Of a stretch of DNA of 64,000 nucleotides, positions 13,401-61,766 are shown piece by piece. The position numbers and the translations under genes are program-made. The notes below the pieces were generated by a model that saw only the letters and a list, made by a program, of their open reading frames with translations, was not told where the DNA came from and did no database searches. The stretch's first letter is position 1. The number at the start of each line of letters is the position of its first letter. The stretch comes from Amphiscolops sp. MND2022. Taxonomy: Eukaryota. The stretch covers positions 20,152,001-20,216,000 of the forward strand of contig OZ076409.1 in NCBI GenBank assembly GCA_964187785.1. Direction: 5' to 3'.

Positions 13401-13560
13401 CATTTCATCTAGGTTTTTCTGATGTGGTTTTCTCCCACTTCCTCGGGTTTATTTTTGTCAATTCCGTGTCTCTGTCCAAGGAGATCGGTATTTTGTATTT
13501 GTTTTTCTCCATTCTCTCGATAACTGTAGTTTGATTTGGAGCCGTCTGATCGGATACATC
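7491..13560 (-). mobile_element. Decayed, 5'-truncated Ty3/Gypsy element in the intron 6358-14047
   Basis: Fragments in order: gag (Q..NETLDEYWKRL; CCHC near 12720-12760), PR (IIDTGSP), RT (FYGLSDIPTVF), RH (YAINDLELLGALWGLEHF), IN (IDRFSKWP, RTDNG, VERTMQTLK). PPT aaggtgggga precedes TGT at 8078. The left LTR boundary (~7491) and the right end are approximate. Confidence 0.88.
11156..11583 (+). mobile_element. HINE family 1 copy (5'-truncated) inserted in the decayed Gypsy pol
   Basis: Ends gagccttagatatagcgccgacttgaaacgttcccgtcttgtt; interrupts the RT/RH region. Confidence 0.7.
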
Positions 13561-14047
13561 GGGTTCAATCGTAGAGTCCATGTTTTCTTGTTCTTTATGC
13601 TACTGTGCTTTGTAATACAATGATAAAAGAGATGTTTTAGGCCCAACATGTCGCCTCCGTTTTTTTCCAGCCATGTGCGAGTTTTGTTTTTTTTTGGGGA
13701 AAATCGTTTCATAAAGGAGGTCTTGTTCAGTGGAATTTTTTCAAAAGAGAATCCTTGACGCTTTAAAGTACATTTGCTCTTTTTGAGTCTCAACAGCAGC
13801 GTCGACTGATGTCGTAAACACTGCGGCAGAGGCAGATCTTTTTTAGGTATCATGTGTTCAAAAAATTACGTGGGAGAATGCTTGAACTTTCAACCTTGTA
13901 AAAACCGGTTGTTTTTTTCTCTCGTTGCAGGTATCAAGAATTGGTTCCAACCATTTTCAGTGCAATTATTTTATGCTTTTTTTCTCTATACAATTCATTC
14001 AGTTTAAAATCATATTCATGAAGAAGAGAATTCAAACTGAGCGGAAC

Positions 14048-16768: not shown

Positions 16769-18758
16769 CTTGTAAAAAAATAGAGATCAGATATGTTGTA
16801 TGCTTCATGAAAAGTGACTTATACTTAGCAGAACTACAAAACTTTTGATGAGTGGATTCCGCAAAAACCTGAAATTCCGAAGCATTTGGCAAAGTAATTT
16901 TGGGTATAGAAGAGACAAAAATTTAAACTTCTATGAACTTCTAACAGTCCGTGAGACTGGTACTCTTACTATCTTTTAATTACCGTCTGATTTCCGTAAT
17001 GATTCCAGGCCGATCATGGCAAGATCATGGTAAGAAAATTTGTATGATTTCTATGGTGCCATAATATGGTCAGATTATGATCGGCCTGGTCGGGAAACCT
17101 GGGATATGTTATGCATATTGGATTGAAATCCGAGAAGTGAACTCACTATTGAATCTTGTTTCCTGTCTTATCCTAAGGTAGAACTATGATGAGAAACAAC
17201 AGTAACAGCAATGTACAATAGAGAAAGAACACGAAAGTGCTAGATGCAGGGCAAAAAAAAACGTTTTTGACTATGACCGAAATTTTCCAGATCTAGTTTT
17301 CTAATATAGAATTCACGTCTATCAAACGAAGTGAAGTACATTCCCCAGGTGCAGTGCTACAAGCTCGAACGTTTTGGGATTATAATCACAAATTTTTTTG
17401 ATGGTAAGAGGTTGCTTACTGGAGTATTTCGGGTTAAACCAATCCGCCGAAGCTACCCTATGAGAACCGATGGAGCGTACAAAAAGTTCAAAGGACTTTG
17501 TAACCACTTGGAACGATGCTATCGCGACTGTTGAAAAAATTCTTCAATCAAAATTTCCACCTTGGAATGTCACTTAGGTTCCAGGATTGCCACTGGGACC
17601 ACAGCTTTCAACCACTTCCGAAAAGACATCAGCCATTTTCTCTTAATATGTTTGGCCGAACCAGATGGAATTTCTCAACATTTGTCCTAAAAGAACGTTG
17701 ATGTGGTTTTTCAAACCAATGCAAAGGGGTCGCTTTTTCGCAAGAGAAAGTGTTTCACGATAGCTCAATGCAACGATCCAATGCTACTAGGTCATGGATT
17801 CCGTAATTACTTGTTAGAAGATACTGCTGTTTCGGTTTTGCTTGGGACTGATTAGCCTAGTATTTCCCTCGAAATATTTTGACTCAGACTAACTCTGAAG
17901 AAAGGGCGTGTCCTCTGCAAACGGACCAAAAGCAACCGCCTTACTCATGTCTTTCAGAACAACCATGAGGTAAAGAATTCAATTACAGGAGTGAAAAATC
18001 CAACTATATCAATAATGATACCTCACATATGTGGCAAAACTCTGCGTCATTGTGCTGATGGGTGTTCCACAGAAAGAGAGAAAACGAGACAGAGAGACAC
18101 GGGCGGAGAGAAAGCAAGCGAAAAAACCAAAACAGAAATCATTATAAGGGCGAATGTTGAGTTTTGTGTCTCTGGGCCAAAACTTGTTGTTCGTACATTC
18201 GACTCCTTTGCATTATTTTGTGTGAAATTGGACTCAAACAATTCCGGTATTTTCACTCAGTTTGCCATATAAGATCGGCTATCAGTCGCCTCTCACATGT
18301 CTTTGACAGCTTCCAAGACGGGCCCATTTTCCAACTTTTGGTAGTCCCGATTTTAGGAACAGAAATCATGGTGCCATAATTGTCCGTATCTAAATGTTTT
18401 ACGAAACCTTCATCAATTGGGAATGAAGTCCCGCCATGCGTCGACACCAGTCCTTCATTCATTCTGTTGAGATTCATTCAAGATAATTTTTATTGTTTGA
18501 CTTTGAGTTGCCTAACACAATCGGAAAACTTTCAAATTCTCTCAGTTCAAAAGCATTAAGTATATATCGACGTTCTTTCTTGATATATTATTGAGTTATT
18601 GCTCAAGAAGATTTCACTTTGTCGCGTTGAGGACGCATTCATCGAAATCCAGTTAGTTGTAAGTTCATATTTCCTATATAATTTATAAAATTTGGTAATT
18701 TTACCAATGCTACACTACCAAGAAAGATATTTAACTTTTACTGTCTTTACCAATTAGT

Positions 18759-19154
18759 CAAATGCTTCTAATAATAACTACTTATATATCTCCTACTGTT
18801 TTTAGTCGGCGCTTTTTCCCTTGAAGAAAAAAGCGCGACTAATAGTGACGAGTTTTTCAAATGCTTCTAATAACAACTACTTATATATCTCCCACTATTT
18901 TTAGTCGGCGCTTTTTCCCTTGAAGAAAAAAGCGCGACTAATAGTGACGAGTTTTTGAAATGTTTCTATTAATAACTACTTATATATCTTCTACTATTTT
19001 TAGTCAGCGCTTTTTCCCTTGAAGCAAAATACCCGACTAATAGTGACGAGTTTTTCAAATGCTTCTAATAATAACTACTTATATATCTCCTACTATTTTT
19101 AGTCGGCGCGTTTTCCCTTGAAGAAAAAAGCCCGACTAATAGTGACGAGTTTTT
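18759..19154 (+). repeat. Tandem array of 4 x 99 bp
   Basis: Units start at 18759, 18858, 18957 and 19056; each is ~40 bp of flank plus a HINE 5' terminus. Confidence 0.95.
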
Positions 19155-19839
19155 CGTCAGGTAACAGAATGTTTGCGCATTGACACTTTTTGCAGAAACT
19201 AATAAAACTATTAAACCAACGTACCGGTCAAGCCTGGCCAGCGAAAATGCATCTGAAGTAGTGCAAAAGGTCTCCCCTCTCATTTTTTTCAACGTAACAG
19301 AAAACCGAACGAGACTAAAGGGTCCCAAATATTTTAATATGTTGCAACAGAACGGATGTTACAAAATCTCAAAGATTCCTCCTTGTACATTTTTTGGAAC
19401 TATGAGACTGTTCAAAATTCTCATTTTATGTCTCATTTTACGTTTTCTCAAAATATGTCCAGAATTTTTTTTCAATACTATCCGAATTTTGAGGGGGAGG
19501 TTCGATATTTCAACGTTATATCCGAAGGATATTGCTTTTTACTAAGGAGGAAGCGGAGGCTCGAACACAAGCGCTATCATTTGTCCCAGCACGCTATATG
19601 CGAACGTTTAACGTTATATCCGTAGTAGTTTGCGTTTTACTGAGGAGGAGCCGTAAGATCAAATAAGCGTTGGTATTTGTCTCAGGACGCTTTTGAAGCG
19701 TTTTTCGAGCACGAAAGGCGCCCTTTTGGTGTTTCGAAGTTTTATGTGAATATTTCATAAACGTCCTGAGCAAACTGTCAAAGCTTTGCACTTCCTGAGC
19801 CTTAGTTATAGCGCCGACTTTTGACGTTCCCGTCTTGTT
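19096..19839 (+). mobile_element. HINE family 1 copy
   Basis: tttttagtcggcgc start; gcgccgacttttgacgttcccgtcttgtt end. Confidence 0.7.
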
Positions 19840-22077: not shown

Positions 22078-22803
22078 TGTAACGTCCGGCTAGCGGTGCA
22101 CATCTAGGAAGAGGGACAATGCCTAGGATGCTTAAACAGGAGACCGTTGTCTTACTACATACCTAGACACTAGTTTTTGGTCACAAAATGGTCTCCTAGG
22201 GGGACCTTTCTCATCGTCCAAAGAGGCTTCTCTAGTTAGAGCTCCGAAGCGACGCGCCGGCACTCTCAAAGTCCGGACACTCCCCACAAGCCTGTAAAAA
22301 CGTATCCTAAGGTTTCTAGCACGTTCCTACGACTTCCTACATACTTCCAAGGTCCAAAAAAGGGTCTATCTGAAATACATTGTATTTGGTAAATAAGTTC
22401 TAAAATACAGACCTAGTAGGTCTAGCATCACCCAAAACCTTGACAAATGATAACAAAATACGGGGACAAGCCCCAACAACATTACATTACAGTTTAGGAT
22501 GCTTCATCTACTCGGCCTCTGGCGTCGTTCTTCACTTTCGGGTGTCTTCTCGGAGAGATGGCACAACATTCCGATTGGGTTGATCTTTTCTTCTGCTGAA
22601 TTCTCCTTCTTCTCCATCTCATTCTTCTTTCTTATTTTTTGATATTTTCTCACGTGCTTTCTTTTTTGCTCTAGTTTCGCGCTCTTTTTTCTCTCGTTCA
22701 CGTCTTGGTACCTGCTAGGTCGGCCATTTTGAATGTGCTGTTTTGATATCGCACATTTCGAAATTTTCATCGAAATTTTGTCATGCCGTTGGATGACGTT
22801 ACA
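22078..22803 (-). repeat. 3' LTR (726 bp)
   Basis: Matches 40348-41070 with roughly 27 substitutions and 2 small indels by eye (about 96%); 9 bp terminal inverted repeat. Confidence 0.97.
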
Positions 22804-22811
22804 TCCTCCCC
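22804..22811 (-). other. Polypurine tract
   Basis: Minus strand reads GGGGAGGA immediately before the TGT of the 3' LTR. Confidence 0.8.
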
Positions 22812-23371
22812 GGGCCGTAGTTTGTCGTCCTCGGCAAACGAGAGGGTTATCATACCCAGAGGGTAACTGCGATGAGTATCGGCTAGACACTCAGACAAAA
22901 CCCTTTTGTTTTCATTTCTCCCCTTTTTTTGTTTCCTAGTTTTTCTCTTATTTCTTCCTTTCGCACTAGCTTTGACAGGCTTTAATAAGTTTAGGAGTAC
23001 TAGATAACATTACAAGTATGACAGTTGATTTTAAGATTCTATTTGCAGTCTGGGCTAAAAAAAAATTTTTAAAAAAAGTGCTCTTGCACTGCATGAGTAA
23101 CAACACTTGGATCTTGGTAGCAACAGTGAATTACCAGGTTTGAGGGGGTGGACATTGTTTCAGGGCCCAGTAACGCAATGACGATTACAAAAATTTAAGC
23201 GAGTACTTTTCAAAATATAATGTATACAGTGAATATCGCTTGAGGATGCAATGTATATAGCACCAACTGAAAGTAAATGACAAGAGGCCATTCAAACAAT
23301 ACAATGTCTTCATGTTTTGAAAGTAACTGGAATGTTTTTCAGTCTAGTTTCTATTTGGTTAGCTAGCTTCT

Positions 23372-26300
23372 TTATTCGTTATCTTGATTAGGCTGTGGGT
23401 CAGGGATGGATGACGTGTTTGCTGTTTCTGGGTTGGCAGAAGCATCCGCCACCAAGGGAGGATATTGAACAGAGTCATCTATGGTTAGCAGATTGTTTAA
23501 CTCGGATTCAATGTCGGCTGCGTCCATTTGCGATATTCCTGCCTCGGGTTCGTCTTGGGCAGGAGCTGCCCCATCCGATAGAATGAAGTTGTCGTCAGTC
23601 ATTGGCTCATCGTTGGGATCGACGATAACAGATGAAACTTCTTGATCTTCTTCAATTCGTGTTTCAGCTCTGTTCGAGGGTAGTATGACTGTTGATAACT
23701 GTTGTGAACTGCCAGTGGCAGTCGCACTTGTTGTAGCGTTTTGGTCAATAGTATTTCCCTGTGGGAAGTCAGGTAGGCTAATGGCTAATTCTGGGTGACC
23801 ATATTGCACGAATTGACTCTTGGAGATTTGGATTGCACGTGCATAATCTTCGCCAACCGATTGTTCTTGCTGTTTTCGTCTGCTGTGCAGATTTAAGAAT
23901 ATCTCCAACGCAGCGCGCGGATTGCTAGGGACCTCTGTACTGATTGGCAAGGTCTTTTTGTTCGGTTCTCTACCCATCAAGGCTATTTTGGCTTTCATGC
24001 GCAAGGATGTTTGGTGGACAGCCAACTCCACCAATTTTGGTTTTGACCAGCACGTTGTTGCGTCCAGGATCCGAGCTGGGTTACACGAGTGCTGGTTCGA
24101 TTGCAGTACATTCTCGATGTGTCCCAGACATAGGGGTATCGCAACCCGGTGGGTTCTTCACCTCGTTTTCTGCCGCCCAGTCTCTGGACTATTGTGGCTA
24201 GAACTCTCAGGACTACTTCTGCATTCCAGTTTGCGAAAGAGTCTGCGGCGCCTGTCTCTGGATTTAGGGGAATGTGTAGCCATGCAATTGGGTGGAACTC
24301 CATGGGCATTGAGAGGGCGCATCGTGCACGTGCTCGAATAATCGATGCGAAGTTGTGTTCTACTTGTTTCTTGTCTTTAATGATTGTGTAGGCCAAGGGT
24401 GGTCGTAGAGAGGCAAAACTGCTGACTGCTCTTTGGTAGGTAGGACCCCGCTGGGATCCATCTGATATCACAAAGAGTAGAATAGACAAGGTAGGGGCAT
24501 TTGCTGCTACTCGCAGGACCTGCGTCGGTTATTGCAACGCCATAACTGCACCGAAGATTGGCCAAAGTATGGGGGGATTAGGGATATCAGGTCTTCCGTT
24601 TCTACCAGCATGAGTGTGGCCATCTGCGAGGGGATCAAGAAACCTGGGAGGTGGTTGGGTTCTCTGTTGATAGCAGGGTTCTCATCCAGAGGATGCAATA
24701 TTCCTGCAACGTTGACCCAGGTGGAGTAGATCCACGCGAGGAGGGCCTCGATGTTGTGTTCCAGTTGCTTTTTAACTGTAAGGGACCCGCTGGGTCCAGG
24801 GTGTATAAGATTGCTTGTAGCCAATTCTTTTGGTTCTGGGCATACACTAAGAAACTGAAGAAGGATAAGATTCCTCTGTCAAATACGAGTTTTTGGAGAA
24901 GGCCAGAATGTCCTTTGTACACTGTGTGTAGCCCGACTGCCATCAAATATCCCAAGACTTCGCTTATTGTGGCTCCTTGCATAGCTTCCATATATAAGCG
25001 TGTCTGTTGGTCGTCCACGTAATACTCTGCATGTACGAAACTGAGAAGCCAGAACGGGATAATGTTATATAGGAGCACCGGGACTTGATTTAAAGTATCC
25101 GCATCGCAGAGCGACTTGATTTAAAGTTTCGCGCAAGGCTTGGTGCCATGTTTGGTAGGTATGCCTGGGTTCCGTCTCGTTTTGCTTTGCCAGGTTCCGT
25201 GCCATCACTATTAGAAGTGTCTGTGTGGGAGGTATCATTCCGGGTTGCGCGTCTGTTGATCTAGCAGCTATTGGAAACACTGTGGTGTTTATTCTCTCCA
25301 TTTTGATTGTTGCCGTCACCTTGAACAGTGCTAGTAGCTCTTTGTGAAATTTTGGGTCATGTCGTCTAGAGTGGATTCGTCCCTACGTTCGTACCATAAA
25401 TTATCCACGAGGTGTTTGAGCTCTTGTTCATTAGGATCGTTCACCTGACGCACACCATTTCCGTCTAAAGATCTGGACGACATTTGCATCCCATAGTCAT
25501 ACGCTGTCGCCTCGTCCACTAGAAGTTGCGAATTTCCTCTATATCCAGTGTATCCTTGTACGGCCTTGGATACTTCTGCTAAGAAAGCGGGGTAAGAGGC
25601 TTCACAGGGGCGCCATGTTTTCACATTGATTCTGTGGTTTGGCGCTACAGTATAAAAATGCAAGTCCCTTGCATAAGAAGCTTCTAGTACCAGATACAAG
25701 AATTGTTGTTATGCTCTTCGGAGATATATGTACCCAGGGGGTGACACAAACACGGTATCTGTATTTGGCTTTTTGTTTCTCATCCTGGTGGCGACGTTAG
25801 ACATCGTTTCCACAAAGGCTACTACTTCGTCAGTTACGGAACCTTCTGTGAGCCGGGTGTGTTGTATATCAAAATACCTCAATGTTCCTCGCAAGGCGAG
25901 GTGGCCAATCACGTTTGAGTATACCAAGATTGGAGGCAAGGGTATTGTTTCTGCCGCCGCTGGCGTGAATATTTTGTCAGTGACTTCTGCCATCTCGCTG
26001 AGCGAAGTACAGGGCATATTCATCAATCTGACATCCATTAAGGTGTTATTTGCGTTGTACGAGGATTTGATTGTCGAGTCGACGAAGAGTGCAATCGTTG
26101 TTTTCTGTAGCAGATCTTTTCCCATTGGCAGTAGAGTAATTGGGTCTCTAGCGTAAATTCTAGTTTGGAGTTGGTTTTCTCCGAATCTACCAGGCCTTTG
26201 ACGGGTAAGCCGCTCGTTAATGGTTTGTAGCGGTTGGAGGTAAGAAGACTCATCTCTCTGTAAATCCCTTCCGAGACGTTCAAACCATGGCGGGGTTCCA

Positions 26301-27521
26301 TCATTTGTGAATATCGGTTTTTTAACTGGCCTTGTGTATAGCACTCCAATGTTCGCCTTCTCTATAGTGCGTTGTTTTGCATAATCTCCTTTACTGGTTG
26401 CATTCTCGAATTTCTGCCTTGGGGATTCTCTTCATTAGATGTTTTCGGAACCTCTCGTTGGAGAAGCACTACGTCTCTTGCAGCTATGTCTAATTGTTGT
26501 ATTTCTGTTGCGGTGAGCAATTCTTTCGTCACCTTTTGTCTCCTAGCTTCTGGTTGACTAGGAGAAGGGGCTGGAGTTGCCCTGTTTTCTCTTGAACTCG
26601 ATTGGTCGCCTTGTTCCCTGGCTCTCTTTCCGGCATTGAGTTTATCTCGAAGGTCCATGGGGGCATTGGTGGTTTTATTTTCTGTCCGTTGTTGCTCCTG
26701 CTGACGTTCTTTCAACTTGGGGTCTTTCTAGAAGCCTATCAGGCGACTAGGTTCATATCTTGGAGGTTCGTTTCTAGATGAGGATGACGTCAACTCTTCG
26801 TATGAGTCTTTGAAGGTGACTGTTCTCTGCCTTAATGATTTTCTCTTGTCTGTACTCCTGTCGTGGTTTGTTCAATTTCTGTTGGACTCACTTGCACCCC
26901 ATCCCTCAAAAAGGCAATAAGGAGCATGAAGTTAGTTGATGAGTGTGTGAGTGAGTGCACGCTTTCAGATGCCAGGGGCATGGGTGGTGTCAAAATGGGG
27001 GAGGAACTAAGGGCAGGGTGCAGTTGAAAGTTGTATGTTGTATCGGCGGAGGAGGAGCCACAGGCTGCGAAAGGGAGGTTGTGGTGCATAGAAAAGTTGT
27101 TGTATGGTAGGCAGGGATATTCTAAAGAACGTTCTTGGTCCATGAGAGGCCTGGTAGGCTCTCCGTAAATCATGTGGGAGCGTGGATCGATTAGCTTATG
27201 GTACAGGTCGTAGCCTTGCCAAGCTCCATCGCGAAAGGTGGCGGAACGCTCAAGCGGCCCTATGCTACTGGTGATGGTCAGTAAAACCTCTGGGTGTGCT
27301 GCTTGCGCTTGCATCTGGGCTATGATCATGGCAAAGCCAGCGATCATTGTGGGGGTGGCCCCATCTTGTAGCGCTTGTTGGACTAAGGCAAGCTGGTCGA
27401 TTCGACCATTGACTTCGCCAACAGATGTGGGGGTGCTGGTAGTTAAGGAATTGGCAGCACGTTGTCGTTGGTTTTGTTGACTGGTAGGTGCGGGCATACG
27501 ATTGCGTGAGGAAGCATCCAT
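23372..27521 (-). pseudogene. ORF3, ~1380 aa when reassembled; SGNH/GDSL-like domain and acidic disordered tail; not env-like
   Basis: Chain of abutting minus-strand ORFs: 26832..27644 (ATG 27521), 26362..26715, 25709..26344, 25331..25699, 25065..25319, 24635..25078, 24507..24824, 23995..24489, 23372..24034. Confidence 0.8.
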
Positions 27522-27854
27522 TGATGATGGGTCGGATAGCGCTGGCGGGTGATACAACGAAATAGATGAAGCAAGGTGATGGTGAAATATAGGATGGCTG
27601 CGCAAGGGCGAAGCAACAGGACAAAACTGAAAAGCAAGTTTCAAATGAACATAAAAGGAAAGATCTTGAACAGACTGAAAACAGATGGGACAAACACAGG
27701 GTTATAAAATTGGAAAGGACAGTGCTTAGGATTAAAAGGTCTTTAGTATGATACTTTATCGTTAAAAGGGGTAGAGTTCGTTCTGTCATAAAAAAAATTA
27801 TATCTAAAACAGTGGTGGTGAATGAAAAGTGGGAAGTCCACTGGCCTTACAGTT

Positions 27855-30800
27855 TCAGGGATTGTCCGTGGTCCTTACATAGGATGAAGTTACCGATGCA
27901 ATGGAAACGTAAACGCGGTCGTGGAGAATTATTTCAAGGTTATGACCCGTGAAGTGGTCGCGGAGCGTGGCGTACCATTTTGATAATAGGTTTATTGATC
28001 TTTCTGGGTCATAGATTGGCAAGTAAAATCGCGTGACGCGACGTTGGTGGAGTTGATGTAGGAGATGCGTGAGGCATGCGTGTAGGGTTTCATGCAGGAG
28101 CGAATGTTTATTTGAGGCTCTGGTACACAGGAAAAAAATTTGATTGTTCCAGGGTGCAGTAGGCGCGAGCTGTCTAGGCGTACGGCTGTGCCGACTGATG
28201 GCTTTAGGCGGAATATGTTTTCTTGCCCATATTCGCGAATGACATAGCGATCTGTTGCAGAGTAAGAAAATAAGACTACGGTGCCTGGGGCCTGTAGGAT
28301 ATCTGTGTTGGAATAAGTTATCCAGGGCAGGTAGCTTGGTCTGGTTTTTGGTTGCGTTATGAGCCTTTTCCCTGCAGCATCGTCGTTGATGTCGATTGAG
28401 TGGGGTGTCAAATGTTCGCTCGACGTTCTTCCTTTACCGTGTGACGTAAGGGGCGGTCGCCCATGTTGATGCATGACCAGTCGTGTATTATGGAGAGGGC
28501 TTCGAGGGAGTGTATGGCGCTTCCGGTGTGTATGTTAATCGATCTAAGATGTGGATCTTGGCTTGTCGGCAGAAGGTGATAGCTATCAGTTGTAAGCAAT
28601 GTTGACTCAAAAACTTTCCGCGGTAGATGTCGGCAAGGTGGAATCAGAGAGTGTCATCTACGTCTACGAGGGTGCGCAAGTTTTCTAGACATATCAATAG
28701 CGTGGTTGGGGAGACTAGGGAGGAGTGATCGAGGGAAGTGACCAAGAGCCACCAGCCGTGGGTAGGTAGGTTGGTAGACGTCACCCGGGGGGAGACCACC
28801 TGATACTTCTCCCATAATTTGTGCGCAGTGATGCAGCGAAGCATCTCTGCATTGGTGCATGCTTTATCCACTTCTCCAAAAGTAATCGAGGGTGGTAACG
28901 GGAGAATAATCGCGGTTAGAGTAAATTCCAGTCCACTATGCTGATTAGAAGTCCATTCTTTAAAGCGGTAAGTAGAGCAGTCGGAGGGGAAGAGTCCTGC
29001 ATTGCTTTTAACGTGGATTCTATAGGTGGTACTACACCGGATTCTGTACTGGTATAGGTCTTTTCCACGGTCACGATGATGTGGGGTACAAAAGGTGAGG
29101 GTTCGTGTTCTTGACGCTGGGCTCGCACGGCTAGGATCCCATATTGCGGGTGTTCAGGTGTGCGTGTCGGAGCGAATTCACAAGCTGGGATGAGCGCTCC
29201 CCGGGCCAATCGAAGACTTGGGGGCTCGATGAGGATTTGGCGTACTCAAGTACAGTTACAGGAACCGCAGGTTCCACATTTATATCGTGGTGCTCGATTT
29301 GCTCGTAGCTGGTATCGTGGTGTCCGTGTTGAAACATTTCCGTGTGGACCGGATTGAGTAGATGAGGGGCTCTCAAGGATCTCATGCAATGTCATTGCTC
29401 TATCGTGAGTTCCAGGTTGGGCTCTAGTAGAGAATCTCGTTCTGGGTCCTTTTCTGGGCCGCAGTGGTGGCTTCCGAGAAGATGTTGTGCTTCTACTAGA
29501 GGAAGTGGTGCGCTGGTTTCCGCGACCAGGGGGTCTACCTCGTGGTCTTCCTGGTGCGCTTACATTTTTTGGTTGGGCTGGGAGTGAGGATGTTTCAGGG
29601 TTCTGACTATCCTGCTCGGCATTGGTCCTTGTGGCTGCTCTTCTTGTGCTAAGGGCCTTGACTCACTCGGGTTGAAGAGGGGGATGTTGCTTAGGGTGTC
29701 TGTAAGCGATGGGTTGGATAATAATGGAGCTGATGTCCCTGAGGGTGATGGTATCAAAGTTTCGGTGAGCATCTCTAGTTGAACTTCTTCTTGATCGGAG
29801 AATAGGGTCTCCAAGTCGTCGAGTTCTGGGGATACCACCTGAGGAGTTGGGTCTGGGATTGGCGGTTCTGTTATTGCTGGCTCCGAGTCGGAGTCAGATG
29901 GGTAATCGAAGTGACTGAATCTTCTTCGTGGGATTCCCTGTTCGAGAGCAGTCTGTGTGCGGGTTTGGATAGTCCGCGAGGGAACCGGTCTGGTTGGTTT
30001 CAATTCGAAAGATGCCTTTGGGAGCTGTTCCGGTACAAATGAATCTCGGGAGACGTCTGAGGTGATTTCTTCATTAGATTCCTCCACATGTGGATCGGCT
30101 ATTATGGCTACGTTCTGGTCTGGTCCGAGTGGTTGGTGTGTGGCCCAGTCCCAAGGGGCGGGTACGTGTTTTTTTCAGTATTCCATAATTGACCTTTTGG
30201 CCAGTACCAAATACGTAGAGACGTCCGTCTTGTAATACATCGGTTACTTTGTGGGGTCGGCGCCATGCGCGAATCAGTTTACGGGTGCCACCCTTGGGGA
30301 TTATGTGGCAGAAAACCCAAACAGCGTCGCCAACGGCATGTGCTTTTGCCTTGAGGTGGCAGTCAAACTTCAATTTTTGCCTGAGCTGGGCTTGGTGGGT
30401 ATTTCTTCGAACTAACTCATGAATTTCTTGTTGACTTGCCAGCGGGTGTTCCACGAATTCCTCTTAGAGTTGAATCCTCGTGCTGCGAATTCTGGGTATA
30501 TGAATTACAATGGAATGGATTTTTTGCGCCATGTTGGAGCATGTATGGCGAGAATCCTGTTGTGGCTTGCCTGGTCAAATTATAGGCACCCAACACTCTG
30601 TCAATATGTTCAACCCAGTCTTGCATTCTGCGTGACGTGTAGACTCTAAGTAAGGTAAGCAAGGTTCTGTTCTGGCGTTCGACGAGTCCATTACCCCTGG
30701 GATGTGCGGGCGTGGATGTCACTTTGGTGACTTGTGATGCCTTCATTATTTCTTGAGCTATTTCAGCAGTGAAATTTGTCGCATTGTCTGATTGCATTCG

Positions 30801-33800
30801 TGCCGGGGTGTCATGCCTGGCAAACCATTTGTTGAGGATGATCTTCGCCGTGGTTTGCGCGTCATATTCGTCGTGGGCGCATGGGATGGCTTCTGCGAGT
30901 TTAGTGAAGTGATCAAATAAGACTAGCAGTCCAGTGTTGCCCGAATCGGTCTTACAAAGCTTCAGGTGGTCGAATTGCACCAGATCGTTGAAATTGCTAC
31001 TGTTTATGTTTTGCAAAAGATAGCAAAGGTTTCTCGCTGGGTGTTTAGCCTGCTGACATGTCAAGCATTGTTTGATGTGATTTACAACATCTCTTTTGAT
31101 CCCCGGCCAGGTGTGTCGCTCTTGTATTCTTGCTAACACTTTTCCCACGCCTTGATGTCCGGATTCGTCGTGTACTCGATATGGGATCTCGTGTTGGAAG
31201 AGTTGTGGCATGACGATCATACATGGGCGCACGTGCAGTGCACATTGTTGTGGGACGTAATTGACACAGAGTATGTCGTCAGAATTCAAGAAAAGTAGTT
31301 TTTTTCTGGTTATAGTAACGTTTCGCGAAGTCTTGCACCTCATCAGGGAACACTGGGTCTTCTAAGGGTTCATTTTTGATAAACTTTTTCAATGCTAGGA
31401 GGTGCATATCTCTGTTCTGAGCCAGGTGCAGATCTTTCAGACCATATTTGGTCAGGTGGTGTTCGTGGAGTTCTGTTCCAATGGTCCTGAGGACGTCTGC
31501 TTGTATTTGACACTCGATGGGTAATTCGCTCAAGGTTGGGTCAGTGACATCTATTCGTGCTGGAGGCACTCTGGTTGTGATGCTCAAAATGCAGTTTGGT
31601 CTTTTGTCTTCTTCAAGGGTTGGCGTGGTTTCCCATTGGATTTGAGGATACCAAGGAGTATCTCCGGGTTGTTCTTCTATGGTTTTGCTTTTCCTTTTCT
31701 TTTTTAAGATATACAATAGGTGTAGGCGTGCGTTTTAAGATCACAATAGGGGTGTTCCGGTGGAAGGTCAGGGTGATATGGGATGATACGACCATGCTTA
31801 TCAAAGTATGGTACGGTGGGAAGGTCATTGTAGTCTTTTTGTGACATGAAATTAAACCCTTCGCTCACTTCTGGCAGTTTTTCGAGGATTCGTTCGCGAT
31901 GAATGTAATCATTGGTTCTTTTACTGAGTCCGTCAACGTTTCGGTGTTGTGAGCGGGGTCGGTGGACTGTTTTGAAATGATACTGGTCTAGGCGCGTGAT
32001 CCATCGACCGATCATGGTTTGATCCATTCAATAGGTTTTTAACCATGATACTGCTTGATTGTCCACGCGGAGCGTGAATTCTCGTCCGGCTAAGTATGAA
32101 TGGAACTATTCGACGAAGTAGAAAACCGCGTACATCTCCAACTTCGGAGCTCCATAGTTCTGCTGGGTTCTTGTTAGTGATTTGCTGCCATAGACCATGG
32201 GCCTCAGGATGGTTTTTCCATTGTGTTCTTGCTCTTGATGTAGGGTGCCCGCTATTGCAACAGTGCTCTCGTCTGTGTCTAGCACAAAACTTCCTTGCTC
32301 GTTTGGTGCGGCTAAAGTGGTTGCATCTGCTAGGGCTCGCTTCACCGAGTCAAAGGCTTCTTGGTGCTTATTTTCCCAGTAGAAGTGTTGGTTTTTCTTT
32401 AACAACTCTTGACTGGGTTGCACTTTGGCTGCACGGAAAGGGACGAAGTCGCGGTAATAGTTGGCAAATCCTAAGAAGCTTTGCAGTTCCTCCTTGTTTC
32501 TGGTGGTAACCATTCCTGGATTTCGACTACTGCTTCTGGGTCCGGCTTGATTCCCTCGGCTGATACCACTCGTCCCAGGTACTTTGTTTCCGTACGCATG
32601 AAAACGCAATTCTCTGCTCGCATTTTAAAACCTGCTTCTCTAAGACATTCAAATATTTCTTTGATTCTCGCGATGTGGTCTTCGATTGTTTCAGTTGCGA
32701 TTACAATGTCGTCGATGTAGGCCATGAAGACACTTCCATGTCTTTGCTGAATTTTTTGGAGGGCTCTAGTAATGGATCGTTGGAAGGTAGCTGATGCATT
32801 GCAGAGCCCAAAGGGCATGCGTCGCTATTCAAATAGACCCAGTTCGCAAGCAAATGCAGTCTTCCTTCTGCCGCATTTCTTTAGTGGTAGTTGCCAAAAG
32901 GCCCACGCCAAATTGATGCTCGTAAAGATTTTTGCGTTGCCTATTCTTGACAGACTCTCGTCTATTCTTGGCAGGGGGAAGGCGTCTTTTACGGTCACTT
33001 CGTTTAGCGGTCGAAAGTCACAACAGAAGCGAAGTTCGCCCGTCTTTTCCTTCACCATGACTATTCCACTCGCCCATGGCGAGTAGGAAGGTTGGATTAG
33101 GCCTAGGGCTAGTAAGTTTCTCGCTTCTTGATTAGCTTTGGCAGCTTTGTCGGGAGACATGCGCCAGGCGCCTTGTCTGTGGGGAATGGCCTCTGGCTCT
33201 AGTTCGATGCGGTGTTTGGCTATTGTGCACTTTTCTATGTCAGCTTTATGTTTCATGAACAGATCATCATATTCATTCAAACCTTTTGCAAGTTGGACCC
33301 TTGCACCCTCCCCCCAAAAAGAAAAGAAAGAACAGAGGAGAGATCTGGACCTGGGATGGGTTTTAACAATTGCGGATCAGTTCTTGCATGCTTCTCCTTC
33401 TCGGCTAGGCTTTCTTCTGATATGTCAGTGGAGGATAAAAAGTTTTGGGCAAAGGAGCAAAATTCAGTACTTGTGTCACTCAAGTCCACAACATTAATAT
33501 TATTAACATGTTCTACAGAAGTTACTGAAGTTTCATCAGTTTGGTCGACCAGAATTGGTTTGAACACAAAGGTTGTTGGCTCTGCCTTACCCAGGACAGT
33601 TTTGTTTTGGAGTGTCAAGTTTTCGTTGGCTGTCCGGTTTCTTACGGCTAGGAAAACCATGCCGTCTTCTCCTACCGTTGTCAGGGTGTTTTCTGAAACA
33701 AATGAGCACTTATTGTGCACCCCGCTGGGGCGTATCATTACGTTGCGGAAAAGGTATTCGTTGGTGTCCTGAGAGATTACTTGGGCTTTGAATAGTTTGA

Positions 33801-34718
33801 GTTCAAAGGGGCCTAGTACTACTTTTTCGGTGGAAACAACTAGGGAAGGTTTATGGTTACTAACCTCATGGATGGGTTTGAAATGGCGAGGAGTTTTTGG
33901 GTCTCGAATGGTGACTCTCATTGCAGTTAGGTCGTCGAGGACGTTATAGGTGCGCAAAAAGTTGCGGCCTAGCAAGAAGTGTTCTGCTCCCAAGTGATCT
34001 GCGATGACGATGAAGTTTGTTTTCAGCGTGTGACCACCTAATTGGAAGTTTACGTTTTCGGCTATACCGATGGTGTTAATGGTTTGCCATTGGCTGCAAA
34101 CAGTTGGACATCGTATGGTAGAAGGCTCAAGGTGTGGGCGGAGGCGATTTTTTGGTATGCGGCAAGTGAGAGGATGGAGACTCCTGAACCTGTGTCGATC
34201 ATGCCAAACAGCGGGATGGGTTCTTGCAAGGTGGTGCCAAAGGCAACTACCAGCGAAGCCCTTTCGTCTATCCTAGCTTCCCCCTGTGGGTCTTGGACGC
34301 TGATTATGTAGCATCGCAGTTCTTGGCGGCCTATGTATAGTCCCTGGGGGAAGTGTCCTTGTATTACTACTATTGCGTCGAATTTTATGTCTACGCCATC
34401 TACACTGAAAGCCACTGGGACTGGAGAAACTGTCTTCACCTTTTGGATGGGTGCCAATTTGGTTTCGTCTTCTCTGGCGAAGTGCGGTAATGGTCGAGCG
34501 GCGATTGTGTATTTGGTATTTCTGCATAGCTCTTCCTTAAGCTGGGCCAATGTCAATTCGGGGCGTAATTTTTGTTCAGCCGAGAGGAGCAGATGAATCG
34601 AAATGAGGGTCTCGGTGCAGTTCGGGGCGGGTGCGTCCAGCGTGGTGAGCACCTGTTTTTCGCCACAAGTGACAACAATGGGTCGTGTTGGGCCTCCGGC
34701 TTCAGCTACTGAAATCAC
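27855..34718 (-). pseudogene. pol: pol: tandem protease, dUTPase-like spacer, RT, RNase H, integrase, long C-terminal extension with macrodomain; frameshifted
   Basis: IDTGSG and LLGRNFL (PR); SPWASGIV, DFRPLN, MPFGLCNA, YIDD (RT); LDTD/LEMYAV (RH); HDESGH..CLTC, FDH, SDNA, NGLVER (IN); WRRPHKV (GPY/F-like). Coding-like fragments continue to a TGA at 27855. Confidence 0.93.
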
Positions 34719-34788
34719 TCGGACTTGGTCGTCTGGTGGCGAATTATCAAAATTGGCTGGTTTGAGGGGTATACCATGCTGCCCTTAT

Positions 34789-37632
34789 TTAATCTTCTTG
34801 CTTGGGGTTTTCTGGGGCCATACATTCGGATGCTGAGTGTTCGGTGCAGCCACAAATGACGCAGAAGGCTACAGTTCCCTGGGTTGGTAGTGACGCAGGA
34901 TAAACTTCATTTTTAATTCCGTGTGGTTGGGATGGGCAGGTCCACCCTCCGTATGGGTTTGTGTGGCAAGAGTTGACTTGTTGTTGTACCGGTTTTCTTG
35001 CGCGATCCCTTAGTGGGCAGTCTATTACAAAGTGTGATGGATCACCACAGTTGAAACACGCTCTTTGAGGTTGTTGCCTATATGGTGCAGGTTGTTGGAG
35101 CGGAAGTTGTTGGACGGGTTGTTGAGCAAGTTGTGCAGGAGGGGGAACTGCCAAAGGCAATTTTGGTTGTTGTGGCTGCTGAGGGGCCATTTGATAGTTT
35201 TCTAGGAGGCGCCACGCATGCGCAGGTATTGTTGAACAGTGAACCGAAGCGCTTCCACCGTTGGAGGAGCTTCTACGTATTGTTCTGGAGCATACATTAA
35301 CGCGAGATTTCGTTTTAATTCAAAGTTGCGTACTCCTTCTCTGAATCTTTGCGTCATTTCGTATCGTCGAACGGTTACTTCTTCGTTCAGGTAACCTTGG
35401 CTACGTAGGCCTTCGAGGGCGTCTAGATACTGCATATAGTCCTCTTCACTGTTTTGGTTTCTGGTTCTGAATTGTTGTTGGATATGGATCTTGCTTGACC
35501 CTGTTCCGAATCGGCGTGCCAGCAAGGCGAAGACTTTCTCGTCAGTATCTTTCTCTGCCTCGGACTTGTTAGTGATGTAATCTCTGACTTCGTGCTCAAG
35601 GTATTCGATTATTGTCGAGGCTTTATCGAGGGGGGTTGCCCTAGCGTGCGCTTTTTCCAGATGGCGTTTCATTAACATCATCCATCCGTCGGTGTTGCCA
35701 ACTTTCGTTCCTCGATACTTCGCTGGTTTGTTTTTTGATTCCTTGGCTGCCAGTGGTGGTTCGAGGCCCTTTGACCTCGCGGTTGATATGACTTCTGCCA
35801 AGGCTTGCCGTTGATTTGTCCTGGGGGTATCGGGGGTTGGATTCGAAGCATCTGGGGTTTCTCCCGTTTCGCTTGGATCTTGCTCCAACGTTCGTTTAGT
35901 CGTAAGTTTGCGCTGTGTGCTAGTAGCCACCGGCCGCGGGACCAAATCTATGTATGCTTGCTTCGGCTGGTTGGTGCTTGCTGCGGTCCGTGCAGTGTCG
36001 TAGTTCGACTCTCTCGTGGTCATTCCGCTCGCAGGTGAATAATAGTCTCCTGTCGTTGATGCACCGTTGGCATAGGGATCAAAGGAGATGCTAGATAGTG
36101 GATTCGTGCCAACGTCGCGGGACTCAGCCTGGAGGATTCTCGCCATTTTGCTGGTTTTTGGGGGATCTCTCTTGTATGTTGGGGGCGGTATTAGCTTTAA
36201 TGGTTCTGTTTGCTCTACGCTAGGTAGTGCTACTTTCCGATGGGTGGCTTGCAGTGGGGGCGGCACGGCACTAGTTGAAGGTAGGTTGCTGGGAAGGGAT
36301 GCGATCTGCGCCGCTGGCGCTGCTTTCGCTTGTGAAGCGTCTGTTTGAGATGCCATTGCTCTCACTCCTAACGTCAGATCTTTCATTGTGGTCATCAAAT
36401 CTATCATACGGGCGTCTGCGTCGGTTTCCCTGCGCTGCAGTAAGTCAGTCATCAGTTTCAGGCCTTCTTCAGCTTGACGATCTCTTTCTTTCATTACGAC
36501 GGACATTTCGGCCATGCGAGTGTCGGCTTGGTTTTCCCGTTGTTTGATTAGATTGTTCAGAGAAGCCATTGATTCTTCAAGTCTTCCTTGGTTTTGGCGT
36601 CCTTCCGCTTGTATTTCCAGGAGTCCTTTTATCATTTCGTCCAAGTCCCCCATGATGGCGTCGGCGCTCATCGCATGTTCGCCATTTTCTCTCGCCAATC
36701 GTGAATGCACTTTGGAAAGTTGGGCCAGACTGGTTCGGAAGTATTCTCTGACTGCCTGTGACTCTTTTCGTATCTTTGTGACAGTGGAATCTGGGGCTGT
36801 CTCTGAACTTGTTTTGGAACTAGGCGTGTAGGTGGGTCGTTCAGTATTTGTTAGACCAAAGCTCGAGCTCCTTGGTGGGGGCGTTTTAAAGACGTACCGC
36901 AGTGGGTTAGTTTCAATTTGTGTGGACGGGTTTTCAATTTGGTTGTTGGATGCCCTGGATGGTCCTACCTGTTGAGTGTAGGCGCTTGAAAAGGGGTTTC
37001 GATCTGCACTATCAGGGTGGGTCCCTGTGAATTGATGGGGTTCGGGGAGCCGCCAGTGGAGTGGCTAAATCGCTATTTTGCGATGTGGTTTCCTCTGCGG
37101 TGCTCATTTTACATGATGGCTTTTCATTTGAGTTTGGCCATTCCCTTAAACTATAGTCAGTGACTTCTAGAACGGGCCACGTATTGCTTTGCGTGGGGTT
37201 TTCAGCACTATCTAGCAGATTGGCGCTATTGGGGGAAGCTGGCGACGAATTGGGCTGTTCGGCAGCAGCTGTTTTTTCTGCAATCTGCTCTGAGTTGGAA
37301 ACGTAGTCTGACATGAGTTCTGAAAACATTTCTGTGATGGTGGATTCAAGAAGATTGTCGGTGAGGGTTTCACACCTAATGTTGGTTTCCATTTCTTTCC
37401 GAATGGATTCGTGGCATGGAAGTTTCCAAGGCTATTTCTATCCATCTTCGCTGATTCCGTGGCTTGCGAGATTATTGCGATTAAATTTGTTGGTTTGGTT
37501 CGTGGCGTGGTTACCTACGCTATCCTTCCCCTTGGAAATGGAAGTAAGTTGATTCGGTGGAAGGTTTACCGATCGAATGATTGATTCGATTACGGGAATG
37601 AGTGGGTCTGAACGGTGACGTTTCGCTTCCAC
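34789..37632 (-). pseudogene. gag: gag: long N-terminal extension, coiled coil, capsid-like region, two CCHC zinc knuckles; frameshifted
   Basis: ORFs 37438..37632, 37012..37392, 35202..36710 (RFG...QQFRTRNQNSEEDYMQYLDAL, MHR-like) and 34789..35190 (CFNCGDPSHFVIDC; CVICGCTEHSASEC). Confidence 0.9.
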
Positions 37633-40314
37633 GGGTGTTATCTTTCTCTGAGATTATAGTCAACTAAGGAAACGGTAATGTTGCTATTAACTCAAATAAC
37701 TAATGCTATGCTACCTACTAAGGTTAACAGAAAGTTTTGGTTTCTCTTTTTGCAAGTTGAAGAGAGTACGATTTGAATGAACAAAAAAAAATTTTTTGTG
37801 TGTATACTGGGGTGGGGGTTCACAGATGATTGTAGATAGGATGTTTACTAGGGGAGCTATGGGTGAAATGACGGAATCGCAATGGGAGTTTTGGATGGTT
37901 GGTTAATTCGGCGGTGAGTTGAAAGTGTCTCAGCGCAGTGCGCTTATTGGTTTCTGTGAGACTCAGCTTTCTCGCTACGTTTTCCTAATTGATGTATTCG
38001 AGTGTCATGGGCTAAACAAAATGGAGGTTGATTTTGGGGGTGTGTATGGAGATAGGCACTGAGTTTGGTGGAATGGTGGGTACCGTAATGGTAGTGTTAC
38101 GCCAACAAACGCTCACTTTTTTATAGACGCGATTACTGGTTTGCTAGTTTTCCATCTCACTAAGTGCCTTGCGGGGAGTCCTTGATTTTGGAAACGCTTG
38201 GAAGGTGGTATTATCGATTCAACGGGATGCGTTGGGGACGCTATCTGCGGTAGTTGGGTATTTGTGTTCTTTGTAGGCTTGTTTTAGGGTATGAAACTCG
38301 CAATTTTTTACTCGATTTTTGGGAAATCGATGAATTTTGTGTCAAATAGCACGCTTGGGAGGGGTGAAAATTGCTTCCAGCGCTAGTAGCGACTTGAAAA
38401 TTTCACATCATAAATTATGCCAGTTGAATCGTGGGGAATTGGTCACCGATTGCGCAGAAATTGATTCAGTGGGTGTTACGGTCACTTTACAACAATTTTC
38501 AAAAATTTGACTATGTCGTGAAATTCACAAAAATGTCAAACTCGCCTTCTAGGCGTTCGCGCTACCTGAAATTTGCATGCGAGGGTAACCTTTGCCCACG
38601 TAACGGAAAAACACGGCTGGGAGGCGTCTGGATCAACATTCGGCGATCCGAGGTGACAAAACCTTGATGTACCAGAGGGACCACTTTTTTGGCTCAAAAT
38701 TCACAAAAATGTCAATTTCTCAGCTTTGGTTAGTAGCCGGCTGCTCAAATTGCACGAATCGTCGGGATTTAATGCCATGCGTACGAAAAGGCAAGAATTC
38801 TAGTGCTGGGATACCTGCAAGGTATTGTACTATGCTCAACTAAAATTCAAAATTTTTTGACAATTTCGTACACTTTCTGAGCAAAACTGCGGCTAAGTTT
38901 TCTCGATCACCAGTAATGCTTGCGGAACGAAATCTCTCTGGAACATTTCATTAGAAGAGAGACTCTCTCATCCCTCATCTCTCCAATTTCTCTCTCATCC
39001 CTCTGGAAACGCTACACCAATGTCTTGGGATTTTCACCGAAGTGACACGTTTTTGGCTATTTCTCGGCAACCACTGGTTGGAATCACTCGCAGTTTTCTG
39101 CGTTTGCAACGTTTTACTTGGTATTGACAGAAAATAGGCAATCTAAACCTAGTAGGTTCCAAATAAGGTCTTCAAAATTTTTATTTAAGTTATATTTTTT
39201 ACCATCTCGGGACTGTACAGAAAATGTTCGTTTTCGCTGAGAACTTTATATTTCTCGGTACTGGATTGTTTCAAGTGGTCTTTTTCAGAAGCGTTCAGGT
39301 GTACTAAAATTTTATTTAGGGGTTTGGGTGGTTTCAATTATTAATTTGATTTCAATAACACTCGGGTCTATGGGTTCCTCTGCTCAGGCCTGTATGTAAT
39401 AAAAGAAAGGGGTTGATAAAGTTTCAATTTATATTGGGGGAAAGCAAAAAACCGTCTTGGTAGTAGTGTTTCAGACTGCCAAGCTCGACAAAAAAATTTT
39501 GGGACTCTGAAAAGGCTTGGGAACTGACGCCCAAGGCTTTGCCCTTGTCAAATTGGGTCGAAATGACCGAATTTGGCGATTTTTCAATAAAATTTACTGT
39601 TTTTCGTTATTTTCGAAAAAGTGGCCCAGCAAAATTTCTTGTTCTAGACCCACTGGGTCTGTTAGAACGTTTCACTAGTATTCCCGCTGGCCGTACTTCG
39701 TTTAACAAAATTTTGGCTTTCAAAATTGAAAATTTCGGGGTTTAAGCCATAAATAGCGTTATTTTCGAGGTTTTCAAGCTCGAATCACTTAACAACTGAT
39801 CGGAACACCCTCTAGGTATTTTCTCAGTTAGTTAGTATGGGGACAAGCCTGGGAATACTCTTTTTGGGCCTTTAAAAGCGATAGGAAAGAATTAACCTAG
39901 CTGTACTTGTAGATTCGGCCACTGCAGGGGAGAGTGAGGTGGTGACGTTAAGTACCTGACGTCTTGCACTCAGCAGGTTGGGGCGTTCACGAATTGTCCT
40001 CTCGGTCCCTGAACATTGCCAATTAGCTGAAAATAAGCTGGAAAACCCTTTAAAACACGTTCCGGATAGGCTGGAATTGCTTTTCTGTTAGGTACAAGTA
40101 AAGATAAAGGCGGTGCACCGTTAGAAACTGTTAATTTCTCATTGTAGACATCAGAAACATGCGGAAAACGTAGAAACAACATTAGTACAGAGCCCAGAGG
40201 GCTAGAAAAAGGCTATGAAAAATTCTAGGACCCTCCCTTTAGTTCTTCCTAGATCCGGACCTAACAGGGCCGGAAAGCAGAAATTGCTCCTACTTGTACG
40301 CAAAATGAAAAATA

Positions 40315-40331
40315 TCCCTCTGTGGTCGCCA
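40315..40331 (-). other. Primer-binding site, tRNA-Arg-like
   Basis: Minus strand TGGCGACCACAGAGGGA resembles the complement of the animal tRNA-Arg(TCG) 3' end (...TCCCnnnGTGGTCG-CCA); it lies 16 nt inside the LTR edge. Confidence 0.7.
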
Positions 40332-40347
40332 TAAAAACTATTCCAGA

Positions 40348-41070
40348 TGTAACGTCCGGCTAGCGGTGCACATCTAGGAAGAGGGTCAATGCCTAGGATG
40401 CTTAAACAGGAGACCGTTGTCTTACTACATACCTAGACACTAGTTTTTGGTCCCAAAATGGTCTCCTAGGGGGACTTTTCTATCGTCTAAGGAGGCTTCT
40501 CTAGTTAGAGCTCCGAAGCGACGCGCCGGCACTCTGAAAGTCCGGACACGCCCCACAAGCATGTAAAAACGTATCCTAAGGTTTCTGGCTAGTTCCTACG
40601 ACTTCCTACATACTTCCGAGGTCCAAAAAGGTGTCTATCTGAAATACATTGTATTTGATGGATAAGTTCTAAAATACAGACCTAGTAGGTCTAGCATCAC
40701 CCAAATACTTGACAAATGATAACAAAATACGGGGATAAGCCCCAACAACATTACATTACAGTTTAGGATGCTTCATCTACTCGGCCTCTGGCGTCGTTCT
40801 TCACTTTCGGGTGTCTTCTCGGAGAGATGGCACAACATTCCGATTGGGTTGATCTTTTCTTCTGCTGAATTCTCCTTCTTCTCCATCTCATTCTTCTTTC
40901 TTTTTTTGATATTCTCTCACTTGCTTTCTTTTTTGCTCTACTTTCGCGCTCTTTTTTCTCTCGTTCACGTCTTGGTACCTGCTAGGTCGGCCATTTTGAA
41001 TGTGCTGTTTTGATATCGCACATTTCGAAATTTTCATCGAAGATTTGTCATGCCGGTGGCTGACGTTACA
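40348..41070 (-). repeat. 5' LTR (723 bp)
   Basis: Direct repeat of 22078-22803; TG...CA termini. Confidence 0.97.
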
Positions 41071-46028: not shown

Positions 46029-46523
46029 GTCTCAAATCAACACCCCGTTTTGTCAGCTCAAGGTCTTTCATATATTGTTAGGGGTGCTTCTTCCTTCAAA
46101 CCTAAACGGGGAGCATTTGGTCTTGTCTAGTTTTGCAAACAAAAAATTGATCCTGTGCGGAATTCAAATCCTTGAAATGAGCAACTTAAAAGTACTAAGC
46201 GCTTTGGAACCTTAGGAGTCTCCCCAAATTAATCCGTTCCCTGTTTTTTTTGTGAAAACTCCGTGAAATTTAGTTTCGCAGTGCAGTTTAAAGTTCACTT
46301 TTTTTCTCAAATTTCACAATATAAGAAATCTGCAATGCCTCATTAATTCAGAGGTGGGCTTATGAAAAACCTGGAGTTTGTGATTATTGCCATTATTGCG
46401 AAATCATGTTGGATCAAGCTCATGAAAAACTATTCAAAATAATATTTTTCTTCTAATAAAAGAATAACAATCTATGTCAAACATCGTTTGCATTTCAACA
46501 CTCAGGGAAACATGCACTTTTGC

Positions 46524-61100: not shown

Positions 61101-61766
61101 ATTTCCCCTGAACAAAAAAGTAGTAACCTTGAGAACTTGCGGAATAAATTGAATCAGGTTTCCCTATTTGTGAGATCAGCAGTCACTCAATTACCTATTT
61201 CTGTTCAAATTTTTGAGGACGATTAGTCTAATTTTGCTTGAATGTCTTCGATAATGCAACGATAATTTACTGATATGTCCTCGTGACAATAAAAAACAGA
61301 CAGTCCAAAAACAATCTGTATGTATTTGGGTCATCTCGTAGAAAGTCATTCTTTAACCCCCTGTGACTCAACTATAAGCTGTATGTAAAGAAACCTTTAA
61401 ACCATCTAACTCTCAATCAACGCCCGACGTCCGTGGGCAAGCCTTTTGACGACGCGCGCCAAATACAATCAAACGGCGCGACCACATTCTGGGTTTTTTC
61501 TCAATCTACAAGTTATGTTTATTTGTAGTTTAGCTGTATATTTATATATTCAAGTAGCGTTGTTAATAAATCTGCCTGAAATTTCTAAAATCATGTTTCA
61601 CAGACACGTCGACACTTTCAATTTCTTCGGGAAATGAGAATCTCCTGGTTATTTATTTCGATAAAAATTATTTCGTTAATTCGGTTTTGGTATTTATTTA
61701 GTTTTGAATAAACTTTTAATTCAAAAAGTCGCCGTTCCGTGAGTTACAGGCGAATTTGTCATAATC
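55145..61766. repeat. Head-to-tail duplication of a ~2.92 kb unit; the first unit also carries an internal 780 bp duplication
   Basis: atcaccccctacaccggatatgcc at 55145 and 58845; both units end gttacaggcgaatttgtYata; gagattctatctaaccaataa at 55920, 56700 and 59621. Confidence 0.95.

Follow-up and report, generated by a model that had tools for sequence, protein, structure and literature searches.

In bdelloid rotifers, the Vesta LTR retrotransposons carry a GDSL/SGNH ORF3 after pol and, in the cited passages, ORF3s of this kind typically come from spliced messages (PMC5408684). The same source describes non-catalytic GDSL derivatives in Athena-L Penelope-like elements, while the ORF1p esterases of CR1/L2/RTEX elements (ZfL2-1) have an SGNH domain placed after coiled-coil and arginine-rich segments (PMC3905857, in the parts used here). 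A non-catalytic SGNH domain that binds RNA is reported for the OSK domain of Oskar (PMC10792757), Ngaro-like tyrosine-recombinase retrotransposons are described as having both SGNH and tyrosine-recombinase domains (PMC9210276), and planarians are described as harbouring Gypsy elements that are large and rich in accessory domains (PMC6431247).

The window analysed here, a stretch of 64,000 nt from Amphiscolops sp. MND2022, contains a Ty3/Gypsy element whose third gene, ORF3, invites comparison with each of these. Similar to Vesta, the element is gypsy-like and has a third ORF after pol that is not an Env and includes a probable SGNH-type domain, a likeness to Vesta by description (PMC5408684). 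The rotifer ORF3s, however, have their invariant catalytic residues intact, and the GDSL ORFs that were cloned measure about 1.3 kb according to the same passages, whereas ORF3 here is 4.1 kb long, lacks the His and Asp and has ~1100 aa extra. In its mode of working, ORF3 is akin to the accessory, non-Env ORF3s of Vesta, and it does not belong to the active SGNH hydrolases. With the Athena-L derivatives it shares a (here probable) SGNH-type domain that lacks catalytic residues; these belong to another retroelement class, and the cited passages give for them no LTR-element ORF3 of 1380 aa and several domains (PMC5408684). The LINE ORF1p proteins differ by their gag position, conserved active site and esterase activity as described (PMC3905857). 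The resemblance to Oskar, an SGNH fold without a working triad, is one of principle only, since Oskar is a host gene and, as described, has lost the Ser that ORF3 keeps (PMC10792757). The Ngaro-like elements were the only retroelement type in the literature consulted to combine SGNH and tyrosine-recombinase domains, and in them the hydrolase is given as a separate ORF after the recombinase (PMC9210276). No description of this Gypsy family with its ORF3 was found in the literature searched, a scope outside which most subscription journals fell.

Structure of the element and its third gene

The ends of the element have TG...CA LTRs, a short target-site duplication, a primer-binding site (PBS) and a polypurine tract, and its Pol shows the protease-RT-RNase H-integrase order, all as in Ty3/Gypsy elements (Table 1). 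The LTRs are ~725 nt long and share 95.9% identity over 727 nt in the window copy; several other copies have LTR pairs that are >99% identical in the part compared. The gag-pol gene is broken in the window copy and forms a single frame of ~3200-3280 codons in intact relatives. The gap between LTR and PBS is usually 0-3 nt; here the offset is 16 nt in all six aligned copies. Two PBS variants occur across the subfamilies, and tRNA-Arg(TCG) matches one of them. Genes for this tRNA form a tandem array with ~174-nt spacing on contig C9 (about 57.54-57.58 Mb), where 99 of 100 among the matches listed are situated (258 pattern matches genome-wide). Elsewhere in the window, we observed a second, decayed Gypsy-like element (about 8400-13900, minus strand; RNase H 10596-10985, integrase 9437-9811), an open frame of 578 aa that matched nothing in Pfam (46495-48231, minus strand), and a 99-nt tandem repeat together with near-identical (97-100%) local duplications in 18650-19243 and 55145-61590, spaced by about 780, 2920 and 3700 nt.

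Table 1 Features of the Ty3/Gypsy element, with positions in the window.
Feature	Position	Strand	Remarks
Ty3/Gypsy LTR retrotransposon	22078-41070	minus	19 kb; contig C1 of a 1.07-Gb genome
5' LTR	40348..41070	minus	ends TGTAACGT...ACGTTACA; TTTT target-site duplication at flanks
PBS	40316..40331	minus	complementary to 3' end of host tRNA-Arg(TCG); 16 nt past LTR terminal CA
Conserved leader	38350..40347	minus	non-coding first 2 kb of 3-kb leader; from alignment of subfamily copies
gag-pol	27855..37444	minus	CCHC, protease, RT, RNase H, integrase, long C-terminal extension; pol stop 27855
Degenerate TARG1-type macrodomain	27888..28336	minus	Pol C-terminus; hhalign against 57 phage macrodomains
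Splice-acceptor-like site	27627..27634	minus	105 nt before ORF3 ATG; phase 0 with ORF3
ORF3	23372..27521	minus	ATG 27521, stop 23372; between pol stop and 3' LTR
Basic KR[AT]R motif, then second RRxR-type cluster	26617..26628	minus	9 of 9 aligned proteins covering the position
Probable SGNH-like pseudo-esterase domain	25520..26104	minus	residues about 471-665; Ser codon 26075-26077; Arg (His position) 25610-25612
C-terminal core, fold not assigned	23990..25040	minus	residues about 830-1190; conserved, mostly helical; holds the hydrophobic stretch
Acidic ORF3 tail	23375..23770	minus	poorly conserved; 16-25 D/E vs 1-3 K/R in last 100 aa, 5 of 5 representatives
3' LTR	22078..22803	minus	polypurine tract directly before

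As the third gene of an abundant Ty3/Gypsy family, ORF3 is conserved, is not an envelope gene and is under purifying selection. We confirmed the ATG-to-stop interval on the minus strand that the initial annotation had assigned to it, and all peptides cited there are present in the window translations. Relative to the natural open copy P0001 (1382 aa), the window ORF3 is broken into six pieces with changing frames, four of which contain internal stops. The earlier expectation that the fragments join into one ORF is borne out by natural copies elsewhere, as open frames of at least 1350 aa were found in 15 of the 150 scored ORF3 matches; natural open copies measure 1361-1415 aa, and the proteins translated from six loci 1361-1387 aa. 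A 140-aa ORF3 piece yielded 2529 first-look candidates in the genome and another search of the ORF3 family 4126, while searches with distant members added more subfamilies at 54-66% identity, many of them open. Among five representatives, from subfamilies 55-65% identical, dN/dS was 0.04-0.13 over residues 471-1175 (pairs with estimable dS), 0.05-0.07 in the SGNH-like domain and 0.23-0.43 in the tail, values to be read with synonymous sites near or at saturation in many pairwise cells. Because of the open copies and the low dN/dS between representatives, we consider ORF3 a real gene that is protein-selected over its whole length. In a single element (L059, C5:11058600-11068400), two matches to ORF3 separated by 2.8 kb represent a partial tandem duplication, and the database protein P0009 has an internal duplication like it.

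The initial annotation had pointed to two ttttcag acceptor-like sites upstream of ORF3. Conservation is limited to the site that ends at 27627, the other, near 27675, being confined to the window copy. All 19 aligned sequences (four of 23 loci, missed by the start-codon pattern, were dropped) and all seven subfamily representatives, one of them a dropped locus, have an acceptor-like TTT(T/C)(C/T)AG|TT at -93 or -105 from the ATG. The stretch from acceptor to ATG is always stop-free and in phase 0, with the first residues F-x-P kept, a pattern that suggests an upstream exon translated in frame with ORF3, although just two spacings in about five lineages speak for it. There was no strong conserved splice donor in the leader or gag, nor was a processed (spliced) copy of the element found; from the conserved acceptor, ORF3 is likely made from a spliced subgenomic RNA.

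Five copies from different subfamilies share 75-87% identity over the first 2 kb of the leader, where codon periodicity is absent and most gaps are not multiples of three. Identity is lower elsewhere in the same comparison, at 49-81% in the 5' region of gag and 35-77% in the 900 nt that follow the 2 kb. The leader had no match in Rfam, and covariation support for an RNA structure was absent in the one 420-nt stretch tested. Recombination between subfamilies or packaging signals for Gag could also cause this conservation.

Domains of ORF3 and the C-terminus of Pol

The SGNH/GDSL-hydrolase-like core proposed by the initial annotation corresponds to ~195 of ~1380 aa, about 14% of ORF3. In the Atlas language-model feature search, this region reached a recognition of 2659 with scores of 0.91-0.93; 13 of the 30 matches fell in sets in which 21-30% of the members carry Lipase_GDSL_2 (the other 17 in sets without a common family), and the best 10 of 10 family matches belonged to the same clan. 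Global hhalign alignment to a profile of 77 phage SGNH proteins covered 170 columns with a score of 14.1, compared to 3.0 +/- 1.8 for block shuffles (maximum 6.3, n=15), and matched F-V-D-S to the GDS block and T-W-R-P-C-E-A-S-Y to DGxHPNxxGY, block III being out of register. With sliding windows, residues 471-685 scored 14.8 (169 columns) and 16 Pol windows at most 6.3. While the Atlas features and the global alignment thus speak for the fold, ORF3 residues 786-1000 scored equally well (15.3), AlphaFold gave no confident fold for the whole ORF3 core (pLDDT 33.7), and searches of ORF3 in Pfam, PHROGs, NCBIfam and PDB sequences returned nothing meaningful; local hhalign of ORF3 against SGNH was not significant (P 0.023-0.2). 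Taken together, we regard an SGNH fold in ORF3 as probable. The LINE-type esterases of the host genome match phage SGNH strongly (99%), and they are not an evident donor because their match to ORF3 was no better than shuffles.

The active centre of SGNH hydrolases consists of S, G, N, H and usually D, as set out in the cited part of PMC10792757. In ORF3, block I reads D-S-T in 15 of 15 aligned copies and is aligned to GDS, with the Gly before Asp replaced. Block II reads P-C-T, with Cys for Gly (15/15), at a position matched by eye whose register is not fixed by the profile alignment, and a block III-like Y-[SG]-N is found in the same number of aligned copies, although hhalign put the template block III elsewhere. 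Block V reads T-W-R-P, with Arg for His and no Asp three residues before, in all 14 aligned copies covering the position, in agreement with the earlier remark that no DxxH motif is visible. If the domain is SGNH, a standard triad is ruled out by the block definitions in the cited part of PMC10792757. Since the Ser is kept, the His is an invariant Arg and the Asp is gone, the domain is probably a pseudo-esterase: a Ser-His-Asp triad would lack both its acid and its base, and catalysis would be lost. The invariant block I Ser and block III-like Asn, together with the low dN/dS of the domain, would also suit an active hydrolase with a non-standard catalytic centre, a reading we consider very improbable given the change of His to Arg, the absence of Asp and the Cys at the Gly position of block II.

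A hydrophobic N-terminus, a conserved furin site and a C-terminal anchor were absent in all five ORF3 representatives. The initial annotation had likewise seen no signal peptide, furin site or transmembrane anchor, but overlooked an internal hydrophobic stretch near residue 980 (Kyte-Doolittle 1.8-2.3 over 19 residues in all five), which has three prolines and is embedded in a conserved globular part of the protein. The N-terminal region of ORF3 is long and of low complexity, the KR[AT]R motif (Table 1) would be nuclear-localisation-like, and the acidic tail includes an ADIExEL motif in eight of the eight proteins covering the position. The env position, the probable splicing to an in-frame upstream exon and the one hydrophobic stretch could be reconciled with an unrecognised Env-like fusion protein whose signal peptide is supplied by that exon; with 6-9 Cys per ~1390 aa in the five representatives, neither a conserved furin site nor a C-terminal anchor, an acidic tail and such an N-terminal region, this appears extremely unlikely. 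Matches of ORF3 to paramyxovirus F were rejected as not significant (E 0.3-0.7), the displayed alignment being a helical stretch only.

For the C-terminal core, Atlas returned the tyrosine-recombinase clan (Phage_integrase, ResT/TelK) with scores of 0.85-0.86 and a recognition of 2125, which falls short of the mark of 2300. Relaxed alignment against phage integrases preserved the order of elements, from the catalytic-domain start through the first Arg, the Lys strand and the HxxR helix to the last helices. By hhalign, the best recombinase P value (0.009) equalled that of a wrong-pair control and ranked below unrelated ORF3 windows; ORF3 had no match to a Crypton-like profile and reached P 0.4-0.5 against a profile of 34 DIRS-type recombinases. 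This profile test is blunt because the positive control, true DIRS against phage recombinases, reached only P 0.012. AlphaFold gave no confident fold for the core (pLDDT 35.4). In a tentative register of the catalytic R-K-HxxR-H/W-Y, the first Arg and one Trp are conserved while the HxxR and Tyr positions vary, so that a recombinase, if real, would be dead. Overall, we consider a tyrosine recombinase in the core doubtful. Elsewhere in the genome (C3 about 2.08 Mb, L151-L153), tandem 993-nt Crypton-like tyrosine-recombinase units occur in one 1055-aa frame.

The C-terminus of Pol matches macrodomains with an hhalign probability of 93.5% (E 2.4e-7, 129 columns, score 45.8 compared to a block-shuffle maximum of 22.9), and both glycine-rich ADP-ribose-binding loops are replaced in eight of eight aligned copies. 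The family is presumably TARG1, a name taken from the motif used to gather the templates. A second, weaker macro-like repeat may exist before it at about 28500-28900 (P 0.012-0.05), preceded by a GTCGSxNCxC motif and a basic GRPxGRG motif.

Possible functions of ORF3

Foamy-virus Tas and plant VANC are element-encoded accessory proteins that bind the DNA of their own element and promote its expression; they serve here as a working model only, and no sequence relation to ORF3 is claimed. Along these lines, our tentative preference is for ORF3 as an intracellular accessory protein made from a spliced RNA, with a dead SGNH domain, that most likely acts as a nuclear nucleic-acid-binding regulator of its own element. 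ORF3 would be translated from the spliced subgenomic RNA and carried into the nucleus by its basic clusters, where the pseudo-esterase pocket and the helical core may interact with nucleic acid or with a ligand, perhaps at the 2-kb leader. The enzyme-derived domain would thereby bind rather than cut, and the acidic tail could recruit host factors, by which transcription of the element would be promoted or silencing countered. We favour this nuclear regulator over a membrane role because of the basic motifs, the acidic tail and the conserved non-coding leader, while the nuclear role itself is loosely inferred from short motifs and composition.

The initial annotation had proposed a lipid- or membrane-related role, which was not borne out: the SGNH-like part is a small share of the protein, and the basic clusters, helical core and acidic tail fit nuclear nucleic-acid binding at least as well. 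The hydrophobic stretch or the upstream exon may nonetheless confer a membrane role. In the most developed form of this idea, ORF3 would be a cytoplasmic helper of the particle or RNP: the pseudo-esterase, aided by the hydrophobic helix, would bind lipid or membrane and steer the particle of Gag and RNA inside a cell or from cell to cell. In the cited part of PMC3905857, the binding of lipids and liposomes by LINE ORF1 esterases was assayed and a link between lipids and retrotransposition proposed, and a membrane role was put forward for the rotifer GDSL ORF3s as a proposal (PMC5408684, cited passages); the env position and the conserved hydrophobic stretch point the same way. These LINE and rotifer esterases are, however, small and keep their catalytic residues, whereas in ORF3 the SGNH-like domain is a minor part, a signal peptide is lacking, the proline-containing hydrophobic stretch belongs to a conserved globular part, and there are also conserved basic clusters and an acidic tail, so that we rate such a helper as rather unlikely. 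The macrodomain in Pol, a second degenerate enzyme fold with its glycine-rich loops replaced, raises the idea of a counter-defence decoy, in which ORF3 and this domain are disarmed folds that sequester host defence factors or marks. The family is indeed very numerous, judging by the first-look candidates, and has several LTR pairs >99% identical, but dN/dS is low throughout, core patches of fast evolution were not seen at the resolution tested and no host target was identified, which makes a decoy improbable. More specific than the preferred nuclear regulator, and distinctly unlikely at present, is a fusion of a disarmed SGNH esterase with a disarmed tyrosine recombinase that acts as a nuclear DNA-binding regulator recognising the 2-kb leader; with the dead macrodomain, the element would then encode three enzyme folds that were captured and inactivated.

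Third ORFs of Gypsy elements are often called env by their position, and the ORF3 described here is a 1380-aa non-Env case from a family with thousands of candidate copies, many of them open, in which the protein is strongly selected between subfamilies whose synonymous sites are close to saturation. It lends itself to testing what SGNH domains do for retroelements. If the pseudo-esterase reading is true, so tight a conservation of a copy without His and Asp would mean that selection acts here on binding instead of hydrolysis, and a disarmed recombinase within ORF3, if real, would represent a new route to element-encoded self-regulators.
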